A stretch of 64,000 bases of DNA from positions 1,302,001 to 1,366,000 of the forward strand of contig CP145409.1 in assembly GCA_036867785.1 (NCBI GenBank), written 5' to 3'. The stretch is from Plasmodiophora brassicae. Its lineage: Eukaryota. The notes beneath the pieces were generated by a model that ran no database searches, was not told where the DNA came from, and saw only the letters and a list, made by a program, of their open reading frames with translations. The position numbers were made by a program, and so were the translations under genes. Below are positions 44,021-51,881 of this stretch, in pieces (position 1 is the first letter of the stretch; each line of letters opens with the position of its first letter).

Positions 44021-47000
44021 ATGTCATCGTTGCCGAGGTACCGTCCGATGGACGGGTACAACGTCAACCCAGATCATCCGACATGGGGGACGCTGCGGCA
44101 ACCGCTCGAGTACATCTCGACACCGGAGGCATATGCCGACAATGTGTCGTCTACGGCCGGCCCACACCGGAACAGCGCCCGATACATTTCGGACGTCCTG
44201 TTCACATCGCAGTTCAAATTCAACGTCATCAGCGGCGCAAGCGGCTGGTTCCCGTATTACGGCCAGTTCCTGGCGCACGACATGATCCTGCAAGCATCGT
44301 CCAACGTGACGTTCCACATTCCCGTTCCACGGTGTGATATGGGATACGGGTTCGACCCCAACTGCACGGGCACAGCCACGATCCCGTTCACGCGCGAGGG
44401 CGGATCAGTTACATCCCGCGGGTACTTCCAGGGACAGAACCTTGCGACGTCGTGGCTTGACCTGAACCTGGTCTATGGCCTCGGCGACAACCGCACGTCG
44501 TACCTTCGAACGTTCAGTGACGGGAAGATGAAGACATCACAGGGCCCACGCGGCGAGCTGCTGCCGTTCAACCTCCCGCTGTTCGACAACGCGGGCCCGA
44601 TGACGCCGAACATGTTCCTGGCTGGAGACCCGCGCTGTAACATCAACCTGCCGCTGCTGGCGCTCCACACGCTGTTCGTCCTGGAGCACAACAAGTGGGC
44701 GACCACGTTCAAACAACGCAACCCGACGTGGGACGACGAGACCCTGTTCCAGGAGGCGCGGCGCTTCACCATCGCGATCCACCAGAAGATCGCCTATTAT
44801 GAGGTGGACTCTATCGCGTGCAGCCCCGCAGTTTGGTTTTGCGAGCGCGACTGACTGGGTGCCCCGCTCGACGAACAGTACCTGCCGAAGCTGCTGGCGC
44901 ACGGGCTTGAACCATACACGGCCTTCAACCCGAACCTGTCGCCCGCCATCGACGTCGCCTTCATGACGGCGGCGTTCCGGTACGGGCACAGCTCGACGAA
45001 CCAGCAGGTGTACCGCATGCAGGAATCGCGGGTCCCGGTCGCCGACGGGCCGCTCAACGTCGCCGACACGATCCTGAACCCGCAGGAGTACCGCGTCAAC
45101 GGCATGGACGACGTCCTGCGAGGGCTTATCCTGGAACCAGAGGCCGACGCCGACGACAACATGGTGGAAGGCATGCGGACGGTCCGTTCCCTGGCACCTC
45201 GCGTGTGCTGTCGCGCGCAGACATGAACGTCCCTGCCTCTGCTTAGCACCCGATCCTGGGCGATATGGCGGCTGTTGACATCCAGCGTGGTCGGGATCGC
45301 GGCGTGCCCGACTATAACACGGTGCGGCAAGCGCTCGGGATGCCCAGGGCCCGCAACTGGTCGGACGTCACCAGCAATCCCGAGTACCAACGGCGCCTGG
45401 CCATCGCCTACAACAGCGTCGACGACCTGGACCTGTACGTCGGCGGGCTCTCCGAGGACAAGGTCGGCACGGGGATCATCGGGCCGACGTTCAACGCGCT
45501 CGTCACGGCCCAGTTCCTTCGGACGAGGGATGCCGACCCGTACTTCTTCATGCGACCCGGCCTGTTCTCCACCGACGAACTGAACAAGATCCAGAACCGG
45601 TCCCTGTCGAGTATGATCCTTGACTTCACCCAGGTAGGCGAAGAACGGCGACGGGTTCATATCGCACCGCCTGACATGTTGCCGGGCACAGGTGAAGTGG
45701 ATGCCGTCGGACGTGTTCGCGCTGGAACAGATCCCGACGGCTAGTTCGGCATCGTCAACGTCAGTGGCGACTGGGTTCACGGGCATCTTCTCGCCCCTGC
45801 CAGGGTACACGGTCAGCTGGGCGATCACCAGCGACTGCGTCTGGACGGTCCAGATCGTCAGCACTCGGGGCGGGTGGGCCGGCATCGGATTCGGCACCCA
45901 GATGGCGGGCAGCGACGTCATCCTGTGCTACATGAACGGCGGCGCCATGACCTGCGTCGACTCCATGGTGGTCGGCCAGTTCGAGACGGCACCGACGTCT
46001 GACGATGAAATCGGCCACACGAACGATGTCCTGCCCGGGACAGTCACCGGCCAGATCCTGGGCGGGGTCCTGACCGCTCAGTTCTCCCGGCGATGCAGCA
46101 CGGGCGACTCGATCGACCACGTCATTACGAGGGCGATGACGCCGATGATCTTTGCGCATGGGCCGACGCCACGACCCGCCCAGCACGGCCTGTTCGGCAG
46201 GGCGCTGGGCACTGTCAACCTGTTCACGAATCAGGCGGCTCTTAGCAACGAGGACGTTTTCCACCTGAGCACCACGTCGGCGGCGGCCTTCTCTTCCATC
46301 GGTTTCATCTTCCTCGCCCTGCAAGGTTCGTGCTCCGCGCTCTCGTTCGATGTCGACATGGCTGACCAGGATGCTAGCGCTGACGTTGCTGGCGATTGTT
46401 GGCTTCCGCAAGACACGTGCCGTGTTCTTCCAGGGCCCATCGCTGCTGATCACAATGCTGCTGGGGTCCATGATGATCAGCGGCACCCTGATCCTAACCA
46501 CTGTGGAGCAGTCTGCCTCGATCTGCGCCTGGCGTTTGTTCCTGTCCAGCATGGGGTTCTCCCTGATCTTCGCTACCCTACTAGGCAAGCTCTACCGGTA
46601 CAACAAGGTTGCCATCCAGGCTGAATGCTGCAATGCGTTCCACGACTGAGTGCTGATCGGCAATGCAGATTTTCTACAACAAGTCGGCGCTGACCGTGAA
46701 AGTCACCAACGTGCACATTGTATCGGGGACGCTAATCTTCCTGGCGGTCGACGCGATCCTGTGCGGGATCTGGATCGGCGTCTCGCCTATGAAGATCGCG
46801 TCAGAGGCGCCGAACACCTGCTCGGATTCCCTAACGGCAACGGGGATTTCCACGGTCCTGCTCATCGTCAAGGGCGTCATCCTGGTCGGTAGTGTATGGC
46901 TGTACCGGAACCTGCAGGCTCTGGAGGGGCGCACCGCATCGATGTTCAAGTCGGACATCAACATGACTGGGCAGATCAGCGCGCTCAGCCTGCTCTTCCT

Positions 47001-47563
47001 GGCCATCCTGCTGCTCGTCAACGAAGTGTCCACCAGCACCGTCTTCCAGCGGACGATCCTTCTCATCCAGTGCATTGCCGCGCTGTTCGTTTCAGGTGTG
47101 GAACAGTGGACCCGCCTTGTTCCCTGGAATGCTGCTCAACGTATCCAATGTTGCAGTGGTGCCGTACGTCTGGTACGCGTGCGTCAAGGTGGTGTTCCTG
47201 CTCGACGACAGGAAGGCGCGCAAGTCGAGTCACGTGTCGGAGGCGATCGCGAGCACGAACATGGCGGCGAAGGGGTACACCAGCACGAAGAAGACGAAAG
47301 GCGACACGAAGGTAGCCGGCGGCACATCTGTGCAACTGGGCGATAGCACGTCGGAGAGCGCCACGGCGGGCGATGCGGCGGACACGAAGGGCCTCCAGTC
47401 GGACGTCTCGAAGAACTTCCGGATCAAGCTGGACGAGGTGCAGAAGGCGCTCACCGAGTACAACATGTACGACCAGCTGGCGCAGAAGTCCAGCGCCAAA
47501 TTCAACAAGCTCAAGTCCGAGTTGCTGCAGATGGAGGCGGAAATGGATTTCAGGAACCAGTAG
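44021..47563 (+). CDS. Heme peroxidase-DOMON-class C 7TM GPCR-coiled-coil fusion, paralog A (7 exons)
   Basis: Peroxidase: YRPMDG, GQFLAHD, TSWLDLNLVYG, GDPRCN, WDDETLFQEARR, AAFRYGHS, DIQRGRDRG. DOMON: GWAGIGFGTQMAGSD...QHG. Seven hydrophobic segments including CAWRLFLSSMGFSLIFATLLGKLYRY. Inferred introns approximately 44804-44878, 45182-45246, 45634-45691, 46326-46377, 46608-46668 and 47097-47156. Confidence 0.85.
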
Positions 47564-51400: not shown

Positions 51401-51881
51401 ACGCTGTACGGCTGTCGCCGAGTCCATAGACGTTGCTCAGGTCAAGCCAGGCGGTCGCATCGTTCTTGCCCTGGAGATACCCATTGGAGGTGTTCGATGC
51501 ACTATGCCGCGTGAAAGGGATTGTCTTTGTGCCCGTGCAGTTGGGATCCAGGCCGAACCCCATATCGCATCGCGGGACTTGAATATTGAAGCTGTGGTTA
51601 GACGAGACCAGCATGGACATGTCGCTGGCCAGGAATTGGCCATAGTTCGAGAACAAGGAGCTAACGCCGCTGTTGATGTTGAACTGGAACGGTGCCGTGA
51701 ACACGACGTCAGAGATGAACCGGGCATTGTCCCGGTTCGGGCCGGCCGGCCCTGACACGTTGTCCGCGTACGCTTGTGGAGCGGAGACGAACTCGAGCGG
51801 TTGCAATGTCGTTCCCCAGGTCGGGTGGTCCGGGTTCGCATTGTACCCGTCCATCGGACGGTATCGGGGCGGCGACGCCAT
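48429..51881 (-). CDS. Heme peroxidase-DOMON-class C 7TM GPCR-coiled-coil fusion, paralog B (7 exons)
   Basis: Same motifs, order and intron positions as paralog A: GQFLASD, AAFRYGHS, QMAGAD..QHG, CAWRLFLSSTGFTLVFSILLGKLYRY, and tail KLKAEILQMEAE. Confidence 0.85.

Follow-up and report, generated by a model that had tools for sequence, protein, structure and literature searches.

Two paralogous genes of Plasmodiophora brassicae encode class C-type seven-helix receptors with an N-terminal peroxidase-DOMON module

The window analysed here is a stretch of 64,000 nucleotides from Plasmodiophora brassicae (contig CP145409.1, positions 1,302,001 to 1,366,000 of the forward strand). Its GC content is 53-66% in 2-kb windows and its coding frames are broken by short GT-AG introns, which marks the DNA as eukaryotic. 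Positions 44021-51881 hold two convergent genes, g1 on the plus strand and g2 on the minus strand, which lie tail-to-tail with their 3' ends about 865 bp apart. The original prediction, made from the letters of the DNA, saw here two paralogous spliced genes for proteins of about 1000 amino acids, each joining a peroxidase-type domain, a DOMON domain and the membrane part of a G protein-coupled receptor (GPCR) of class C. The observation is confirmed by the present analysis; the interpretation attached to it is only partly supported. The two genes encode real, expressed and selectively maintained class C-type seven-helix receptors with a peroxidase-DOMON module of about 680 amino acids at the N-terminus.

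The gene g1 extends from 44021 to 47563, with the ATG at 44021 and the stop codon at 47561-47563, and is modelled from the open reading frames (ORFs) with seven exons (44021-44803, 44879-45180, 45246-45632, 45691-46323, 46376-46607, 46669-47092 and 47154-47563) which code for 1056 amino acids. The introns that lack an RNA joint in this gene are predicted from GT..AG sites and from the alignment with the paralog. The gene g2 occupies 48429-51881 on the minus strand, with the ATG at 51881 and the stop codon at 48429-48431; its seven exons (51881-51099, 51037-50734, 50679-50292, 50231-49597, 49541-49312, 49252-48826 and 48763-48429), which code for 1033 amino acids, follow from joints in RNA-like contigs and from the open translation. 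The two proteins are identical at 702 of 1030 aligned residues (68%). In both genes Pfam finds An_peroxidase, DOMON and 7tm_3 on consecutive exons. Pfam was scored exon by exon, the seven-helix (7TM) region included, on 13 open-frame pieces.

The evidence for transcription comes from three sequencing runs of three different studies (X2, X3 and X8), none of them recorded as RNA, which were taken to be RNA by guess; the signs for this are strand-consistent intron joints, a poly-T end and zero depth at the intergenic bins 47694-48235. A further run, X15, is DNA-like with an even depth of about 77. One contig each in X2, X3 and X8 covers g2, and the X2 and X8 contigs extend from 48354/48355 to beyond 52000. 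The introns 48764-48825, 49253-49311, 49542-49596, 50232-50291, 50680-50733 and 51038-51098 are skipped in all three contigs; each is GT..AG on the minus strand, with cut positions that are ambiguous by 1-5 nt. The spliced translation is open over its 1033 amino acids with no internal stop. At 48355 the X8 contig has a loose end, TTTTTTTT, a poly-T that on the strand of g2 reads as a poly(A) tail. Because the six joints are common to the contigs of the three runs and none of them is found in the DNA-like run X15, g2 is a single seven-exon mRNA.

The proposal of single spliced transcripts thus holds for the whole of g2 in three runs and for a part of g1, in which three of six introns (45181-45245, 46324-46375 and 47093-47153) were seen removed, in X3 only. 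The X3 contig 45566-46527 joins the end of the peroxidase domain, the DOMON domain and the first three transmembrane helices (TM1-3) of g1, yet keeps the predicted intron 45633-45690, with which the reading frame of g1 would end after the peroxidase domain. Another X3 contig of low depth starts inside the predicted intron 44804-44878 (44806-44878 kept), a low-depth X2 contig keeps 47093-47153, and the intron 46608-46668 comes from prediction alone. The kept introns might stem from pre-mRNA, from carried-over DNA or from a genuine isoform that is truncated.

It might be argued that separate peroxidase-DOMON and 7TM genes are only apparently joined by the gene models, and it is true that the protein collections hold only prokaryote-style ORF fragments of g1 and g2 (P0043, P0044 and P0194). 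This is contradicted by the single contigs over all seven g2 exons in three runs, by the splitting of TM1 over the junction of exons 4 and 5 in both genes, and by two independent full-length proteins with the same domain order, P0173 (an ORF from a transcriptome) and P0130 (a gene call from a metagenome), so that an artefact of annotation has hardly any probability left.

Two further details of the sequencing data concern this region. Just upstream of the g2 start, at position 51897 of the window, a 7-nt insertion polymorphism is present as two variants in X3 and X15, which fits the untranslated status of this region. A contig joint in X15 leads from 47665 to 51620 and leaves out 3954 bases; 29 other letters stand at the joint, and its shorter side has only 24. 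A rearrangement in the strain could account for it, or a join made in assembly between the two inverted paralogs.

The duplication which gave rise to g1 and g2 is old, with a synonymous divergence (dS) of about 0.85, and every part of the protein is constrained. The ratio of non-synonymous to synonymous divergence (dN/dS, Nei-Gojobori) is 0.21 for the peroxidase domain, 0.26 for linker plus DOMON, 0.23 for the 7TM region and 0.45 for the tail, and the first three are thus under purifying selection.

The peroxidase-like domain occupies exons 1-3, which is 44021-45632 in g1 and 50292-51881 (minus strand) in g2. Three consecutive pieces per gene cover positions 1-523 of the 530 positions in the An_peroxidase model, with E values of 2.7e-56, 6.2e-15 and 5.4e-40 in g1 (from model positions 1-272 through 272-380 to 392-523) and of 9e-58, 1.1e-15 and 1.9e-39 in g2. 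The solved structures closest to exon 1 are 8s6c ('Lactoperoxidase', 528 amino acids; E 3.5e-43) and 6erc, the peroxinectin A of Dictyostelium (E 4.3e-28); behind these two come dual oxidase, myeloperoxidase and cyclooxygenases. The motifs GQFL.HD, GD.R.N and FR.GHS of 8s6c and 6erc align with g1 and g2. These two heme peroxidases, one of the short bacterial type and one from Dictyostelium, differ from our proteins in being soluble enzymes, and 8s6c has the Asp and Glu residues which link the heme.

From the alignment with these structures the key residues can be located. The distal motif is GQFLDHD in 8s6c, GQFLAHD in g1, where the distal His is kept as His86 (codon 44276-44278), and GQFLASD in g2, where Ser86 (51624-51626) stands at the distal-His site. 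The X2 and X8 contigs show 0 letters different from the window over 51099-52000, which includes exon 1 of g2, and Ser86 is therefore not an assembly error. The distal Arg of GDPRCN (Arg205; 44633-44635 in g1, 51267-51269 in g2) and the proximal His of FRYGHSS (His298; 44987-44989 in g1, 50927-50929 in g2) are present in both proteins and align to 8s6c and 6erc, FRYGHSS falling on FRFGHSE of 6erc. At the two heme-link sites of 8s6c the Asp is replaced by Ala in both proteins, and the Glu by Ile in g1 and Leu in g2. Ester links from Asp and Glu to heme are typical of mammalian peroxidases, and a protein can belong to the wider superfamily without them. Conserved sequons for N-glycosylation stand at N41, N95 and N114.

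Exon 4 (45691-46323 in g1; 49597-50231 on the minus strand in g2) codes for a linker, the DOMON domain and the first half of TM1. Pfam DOMON matches with E 1.6e-13 (51.4 bits) in g1 and E 3.9e-16 (59.8 bits) in g2, the cut-off being 32.7 bits. A single DOMON exon as query gave 0 matches to the PDB at E <= 1, and a profile of 35 sequences (A1) was needed to find the DOMON domain of dopamine beta-hydroxylase (E 6e-7), with weak matches to nitrite oxidoreductase subunit C (E 0.026) and to cellobiose dehydrogenase (E 0.34). An AlphaFold2 model of g2 exon 4 (pLDDT 82.5, pTM 0.80) was compared with solved structures by Foldseek, which at E <= 0.001 returned nine matches: seven heme-b cytochrome domains from cellobiose or pyranose dehydrogenases (4zel, 4qi6, 1d7b, 6jt6 etc. 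stand among the nine, at E <= 7e-4) and two chains of dopamine beta-hydroxylase.

Two residues in the DOMON domain are candidate heme ligands, a Met in GTQMAG (Met562, 45902-45904 in g1; Met563, 50018-50020 in g2) and a His in AQHGLF (His656, 46184-46186 in g1; His657, 49736-49738 in g2). Both are invariant in 10 of 10 aligned peroxidase-linked proteins, and 28 (Met) and 30 (His) of the 35 rows of A1 carry them. In the weak match to cellobiose dehydrogenase (4qi6, E 0.34) the Met column falls on GGPM, the Met of which we take to be the heme ligand of that enzyme. Met/His ligation of heme is found in cellobiose dehydrogenase and in AIR12, and the pattern in g1 and g2 fits such a ligation without being proof of it. 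Both candidate ligands are conserved, and two hemes per chain are plausible.

The seven-helix region spans 46286-47197 in g1 (exons 4-7) and 48729-49636 on the minus strand in g2, introns included, and hydropathy gives seven hydrophobic segments in each. The TM1-3 piece matches 7tm_3 with 39.7 bits in g1 (E 6e-10, model positions 21-100) and 49.8 bits in g2 (E 4.9e-13), above the cut-off of 33.5 bits. None of the 13 pieces gave a Pfam match to Cytochrom_B561 or Ferric_reduct at E <= 1, the outcome by which the original prediction itself would have been refuted. In the PDB the g2 TM1-3 exon has eight matches with E <= 1, all of them weak (E 0.19-1) and all of them to class C receptors, namely GABA-B1, GPR158, mGlu2 and GPR156. 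Both genes have class C features on which the original prediction had relied: the TM3 motif CAWRLF...GF.L.F..LLGKLYRY..IF with its Cys (Cys752, 46524-46526 in g1; Cys753, 49393-49395 in g2) and the Cys of PNTC in the second extracellular loop, ECL2 (Cys830, 46819-46821 in g1; Cys831, 49100-49102 in g2).

Behind the helices both proteins have a conserved C-terminal tail, predicted to be cytoplasmic. In g1 it is encoded by 47198-47563; its last ~50 residues are conserved with g2 and have a helical or coiled-coil-like look, and Pfam gives it only a weak match to MIS13. In g2 the tail, the stop codon and about 74 nt of 3' untranslated region occupy 48355-48728, with the poly(A) site near 48355. 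A complex prediction of the g1 tail (P0318, 80-135) with the g2 tail (P0319, 52-110) scored 0.15 against a mark of 0.34; it was run without controls and speaks neither way on dimerisation.

Relatives were sought with the DOMON exon of g2 in an exhaustive phmmer search, which found 323 proteins at E <= 0.001. The only close matches were ORF-call fragments of g1 and g2 themselves from raw assemblies (P0043 and P0044; Logan), and an annotated full-length protein of the source organism was found neither by phmmer nor by word-indexed protein searches. A script screen of the best 150 of the 323 gave 23 proteins with a peroxidase domain and three with a 7TM region like that of P0173 and P0130. The Pfam architecture check covered 28 of the best 150: 15 of these have peroxidase plus DOMON, seven of them with Cyt-b5 and two with cytochrome b561. 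The combination An_peroxidase, DOMON and 7tm_3 is present in P0173 (908 amino acids, Rhizamoeba saxonica transcriptome in EukProt; 7tm_3 E 8e-33), in P0078 (536 amino acids, cut at the N-terminus, Dermamoeba algensis transcriptome in EukProt; E 1e-29) and in P0130 (1136 amino acids, JGI metagenome contig; E 2e-36). In the DOMON region P0173, P0078 and P0130 are about 27-33% identical to g2. The architecture is thus rare, and it is not unique, being present in at least two amoebozoan lineages, in this genome and in one metagenome protein.

More often the same ectodomain is joined to cytochrome b561 (P0121 from Diphylleia rotans, and P0159) or to a cytochrome-b5 reductase module; the seven Cyt-b5 proteins are mostly from chytrid fungi (e.g., P0001 from Powellomyces hirtus and P0145 from Chytriomyces sp.) and five of them have both FAD and NAD domains. 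Once, in P0179 from a JGI metagenome contig of 3672 bp, it is followed by a hydrophobic segment and a protein kinase, which is a receptor-kinase version of the ectodomain. The relative closest to g1 and g2 is P0050, from a metagenome contig of 1819 bp, which over the DOMON stretch is 46% identical to g2 and breaks off in an apparent first half of TM1. The module comes out of a larger family, peroxidase-DOMON proteins bound to the membrane, in which the usual partner in the membrane or the cytosol is an electron-supply unit (cytochrome b561, or cytochrome b5 with an FAD/NAD reductase), here exchanged for a signalling 7TM domain.

With the 477-aa ORF of g2, word-indexed searches (42 longer proteins; 250 of near length, 120 of them listed) gave no relative bearing 7tm_3 among the matches listed and, from the source organism, only the window's own ORF P0043. 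The 7TM region of P0130 used in the same manner returned four proteins, itself and three receptors with ANF plus 7tm_3; because P0173 was missed, the word-indexed search must be regarded as insensitive here, and within the limits of such searches no NCBI or UniRef protein with peroxidase, DOMON and 7tm_3 was found. In the ESM Atlas (clusters of at least 50 members) the top-ranked match of P0130 was an An_peroxidase plus DOMON cluster of 75 members, which with a score of 0.79 is a lead only, and no 7tm_3 cluster was among the matches listed. A metagenome scan with A2 gave a single locus, L001 (150-3809, plus strand), with an open frame of 1220 amino acids, five DOMON repeats and matches to cytochromes of cellobiose dehydrogenase; it contains no peroxidase and no 7TM domain.

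A quick maximum likelihood tree of 22 ectodomains places g1, g2 and P0050 together (SH-aLRT 97) as sister to P0113 and P0128 (98), whereas P0173 and P0130 (97) group with the kinase-fused P0179 (99) and not with g1 and g2. Forcing the GPCR-fused ectodomains into one clade costs 56 log-likelihood units and is rejected (p-AU 0.0003); the group tested was named after the tree had been seen, and the tree contains one long branch, P0112. In a comparison of six class C proteins the 7TM regions of g1 and g2 score 26.5-35 bits against chytrid (Spizellomyces) receptors with ANF plus 7tm_3, compared to 17-23 bits against P0173 and P0130. Because the ectodomain tree is split in this way, and because the 7TM regions score lower against P0173 and P0130 than against the chytrid ANF receptors, the fusion may have arisen twice; the sequence comparisons suggest that the ectodomain was joined to a class C 7TM domain more than once, or that modules were swapped.

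The relatives put the active site of g1 and g2 in perspective. The distal Gln, the distal Arg and the proximal His are kept in all of g1, g2, P0173 and P0130, the four full-length proteins of this architecture, whereas the distal His is kept in g1 only and is Ser in g2, Thr in P0173 and Val in P0130. In the b561 and b5-type relatives checked (P0121, P0159, P0113 and P0001) it is kept in four out of four. With this pattern, and with the covalent heme-link residues absent from g1 and g2, the 'enzyme module' of the original prediction becomes doubtful. In the version of that prediction weighed here, an enzyme with two hemes would be active on H2O2 or on phenolics of the host, its turnover would drive G-protein signalling, and a pathogen would in this way sense the oxidative burst of its host. 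The Pfam order and the spliced g2 contigs agree with this as well, and g1 appears catalytically intact. On the other hand, g2, P0173 and P0130 are without the acid-base His needed for formation of compound I, no electron-supply module is present, and the burst idea presumes a pathogen, while the species named as carriers of this architecture, both in EukProt, are free-living amoebae. We therefore hold turnover-driven sensing to be quite improbable.

A somewhat better case, although still a rather unlikely one, can be made for a membrane-anchored enzyme, in which the 7TM region is an anchor or dimer scaffold for an active peroxidase-cytochrome pair that cross-links a cell wall or cyst wall or removes peroxide, with no G-protein signalling. 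The complete set of distal Gln, His, Arg and proximal His in g1 is what such an enzyme requires, and in most of its relatives the module has an electron-transport unit as partner, an indication that its ancestral role was redox chemistry. This must be held against the missing distal His in three of the four full-length GPCR-fused proteins, the existence of a kinase-fused ectodomain, and a 7TM region which is constrained like the ectodomain (dN/dS 0.23) and has a TM3/ECL2 Cys pair and a K.YR motif that a mere anchor would not need.

The explanation we prefer, tentatively and at a little less than an even chance, is a heme-based sensor receptor in which peroxide, the redox state or a small heme ligand is reported to a class C 7TM dimer. 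A sensor is favoured over an enzyme because the distal His is lost in three of four proteins and the electron source is gone, with the proximal His, the distal Arg and the DOMON ligands kept; the kinase-fused P0179, a second signalling output for the same ectodomain, speaks for it too. The ancestral module would have been an outside-facing peroxidase to which the DOMON cytochrome passed electrons from a source that spanned the membrane or lay in the cytosol. Where the module is fused to a GPCR, this source would have been given up together with, in most cases, the acid-base His, and the residues that hold the hemes would have been retained. Peroxide, another small oxidant, a reductant or a gas would bind to or react with the heme of the peroxidase-type domain, or the DOMON heme would change its redox state, or both, and the altered ectodomain would pass the change through the dimer to the 7TM bundle and from there to a G protein as in other class C receptors. 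The protein with the full catalytic set is g1, and g2, which has lost the distal His, would be a copy that binds a ligand or regulates and does not catalyse. That heme is bound, that the module lies outside, that the receptors dimerise and couple to G proteins, and what the stimulus is are all things we infer.

Several observations weigh against the heme-sensor receptor. The protein g1 retains every catalytic residue (Gln, His, Arg and proximal His), so catalysis may still matter. DOMON domains can reportedly bind sugars instead of heme, and dopamine beta-hydroxylase, which of all PDB entries matches the DOMON domain best, is heme-free. The TM4-7 pieces alone stay below the 33.5-bit cut-off with 23.5 bits in g1 (E 4.9e-5) and 18 bits in g2 (E 0.0025), although they continue the same 7tm_3 model at positions 100-244 (100-240 in g1), and the g2 TM1-3 exon finds its class C structures in the PDB with weak scores only. 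TM7 reads VPYVWY in both proteins, where class C receptors have PK.Y. For g1 the RNA contigs support the model only in part, and two of its predicted introns were seen unspliced. No signal peptide is found in g1 or g2, the maximal 19-residue hydropathy in the first 60 windows being 0.74 and 0.96; an in-frame TGA lies 15 nt upstream of the ATG in both genes; and when a signal-peptide exon was sought upstream of both genes, g2 proved to have no AG acceptor from the TGA up to where the domain begins, with colinear RNA contigs over this stretch. The passage of an N-terminal domain of 680 amino acids across the membrane is hard to account for without a leader, and its outside location is tentative. 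Because of the missing signal peptide our confidence in the picture of a receptor ectodomain is lowered.

Two of these points lead to explanations of their own. The peroxidase-like fold could be a heme-free scaffold, with the DOMON domain binding a sugar or another ligand in a sensing that is not redox. A precedent for such a pseudo-enzyme is the heme-free peroxidase-homology domain of human DUOX1, which is itself among the PDB matches (E ~7e-17), and the loss of the distal His in three of four fused proteins and of both covalent-link residues agrees with it, as does the kinship with the heme-free dopamine beta-hydroxylase. The retention of the proximal His, distal Arg and distal Gln in all four proteins, and of the Met/His pair in the DOMON domain, would be hard to understand in this way, and we find a heme-free ectodomain improbable.

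The other explanation is that the peroxidase-DOMON part is cytosolic, or that the protein resides in an internal membrane, so that it is not a cell-surface ectodomain at all. The N-termini that lack a hydrophobic stretch, the in-frame upstream stops and the lack of space for a leader exon in g2 are what this would predict. Both proteins begin with M(S/A)S(L/P)PRYRPMDGYN, the motif with which the peroxidase domain opens, and in six complete relatives (P0130, P0121, P0070, P0001, P0113 and P0145), the 7tm_3-type P0130 included, a signal peptide stands right before this start motif. Furthermore, DOMON domains are known as extracytoplasmic domains, and the charges of the loops show a strong positive-inside bias, with 13 versus 3 (g1) and 12 versus 2 (g2) Lys plus Arg in alternate loops, which predicts the N-terminus outside. 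We consider the inverted or intracellular arrangement very unlikely. As to the claim that a new ectodomain has replaced the ligand-binding domain, no Pfam match to ANF (Venus-flytrap), Cache or NCD3G was found on the g1 and g2 pieces, which agrees with a replacement; the word ectodomain is the part that stays provisional.

Compared to known class C receptors (GABA-B, mGluR, GPR158/156, the Grl receptors of Dictyostelium and the chytrid receptors with ANF plus 7tm_3), g1 and g2 share the 7tm_3 domain with seven helices, the Cys pair of TM3 and ECL2 and the K.YR at the border of TM3 and the second intracellular loop. As in GABA-B, the N-terminal domain is large and the helical C-tail is conserved. 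They differ in having peroxidase-like and DOMON domains instead of a Venus-flytrap/ANF, Cache or cysteine-rich domain, and in the absence of a signal peptide and the sequence of TM7. The peroxidase-DOMON proteins with b561 or with Cyt-b5, FAD and NAD domains have a homologous ectodomain with the DOMON Met/His pair conserved, but they carry an electron-transport unit, while g1 and g2 have a GPCR domain and no electron path. DUOX also has a peroxidase-homology domain N-terminal to a membrane domain; with its EF-hands and NOX flavocytochrome it makes H2O2, whereas g1 and g2 are without NOX and carry the module on a GPCR. P0173, P0078 and P0130 have the same order of the three domains as g1 and g2, and P0173 and P0130 are without the distal His as is g2.

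A GPCR fused to an enzyme-type domain recalls the GPCR-bigrams of oomycetes and other protists, for which the types PIPK, AC, TKL, DEP, INPP, PDE and aspartic protease are listed in the portion of the review consulted (van den Hoogen and Govers, 2018); in AP-GPCR the enzyme domain is N-terminal. By the definition of a bigram, a GPCR with a catalytic accessory domain, g1 and g2 would have the enzyme-family domain at the N-terminus, with catalysis doubtful for g2. The words 'peroxidase' and 'DOMON' occur 0 times in the consulted portions of the bigram review and its companion paper. In the literature searched, which included these two papers and a 2025 survey of GPCRs in animal relatives, and whose supplementary tables could list such proteins, no description of a peroxidase- or DOMON-bearing GPCR was found. 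The peroxidase-DOMON module on a class C receptor is thus a new, apparently undescribed ectodomain variant. The original prediction, which knew of no description of the architecture, stands in so far as no publication was found, and has to be modified in so far as P0173, P0078 and P0130 have it as well.

A bolder form of our explanation holds that these are heme-sensor GPCRs, a mode not known for GPCRs, that the fusion of the module with a class C receptor has arisen at least twice, and that the His-intact g1 and the His-less g2 form a GABA-B-like heterodimer with one reactive and one regulatory subunit. Taken together these statements are possible, but on the unlikely side. The pairing of g1 and g2, both with a conserved helical tail, recalls the GABA-B heterodimers by analogy and is speculation.

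The nearest neighbour of g2 is a divergent gene on the plus strand, an open frame of 869 amino acids with an SH3 domain (51977-54583), which lies head-to-head with g2 with the likely start codons about 230 bp apart. The g2 contigs run on into this gene, which is not proof of one transcript across both genes; the X2, X3 and X8 contigs suggest overlapping 5' ends or a shared bidirectional promoter. Beyond it, on the minus strand at 54628-56214, one open frame has the unusual pairing of Isochorismatase (E 4.9e-24) and 2OG-FeII_Oxy_2 (E 9.7e-30). Elsewhere in the window are genes with no link to the receptors: a long ORF of coiled-coil type that matches SF-assemblin marginally (5474-8467, minus strand; 32.8 bits at a cut-off of 30.6) and, from Pfam, actin (19503-21107, plus), an M16 peptidase with two domains (20871-22421, minus), dymeclin (29855-31162, minus) and a cytochrome-b5-fused fatty acid desaturase (35368-36594, minus).

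Class C receptors are the textbook case of ligand capture by a Venus-flytrap domain. If the heme-sensor explanation is true, the class C 7TM engine could be driven by a quite different input, a heme peroxidase fold together with a cytochrome domain, and g1 and g2 would be direct candidates for sensing of peroxide or redox state at the receptor level in a protist. The residue pattern, in which the catalytic His is lost and the heme ligands are kept, constitutes a concrete prediction. The wider family to which the module belongs is little described, and it ties extracellular heme chemistry to devices as different as b561, b5-reductase, kinase and GPCR.

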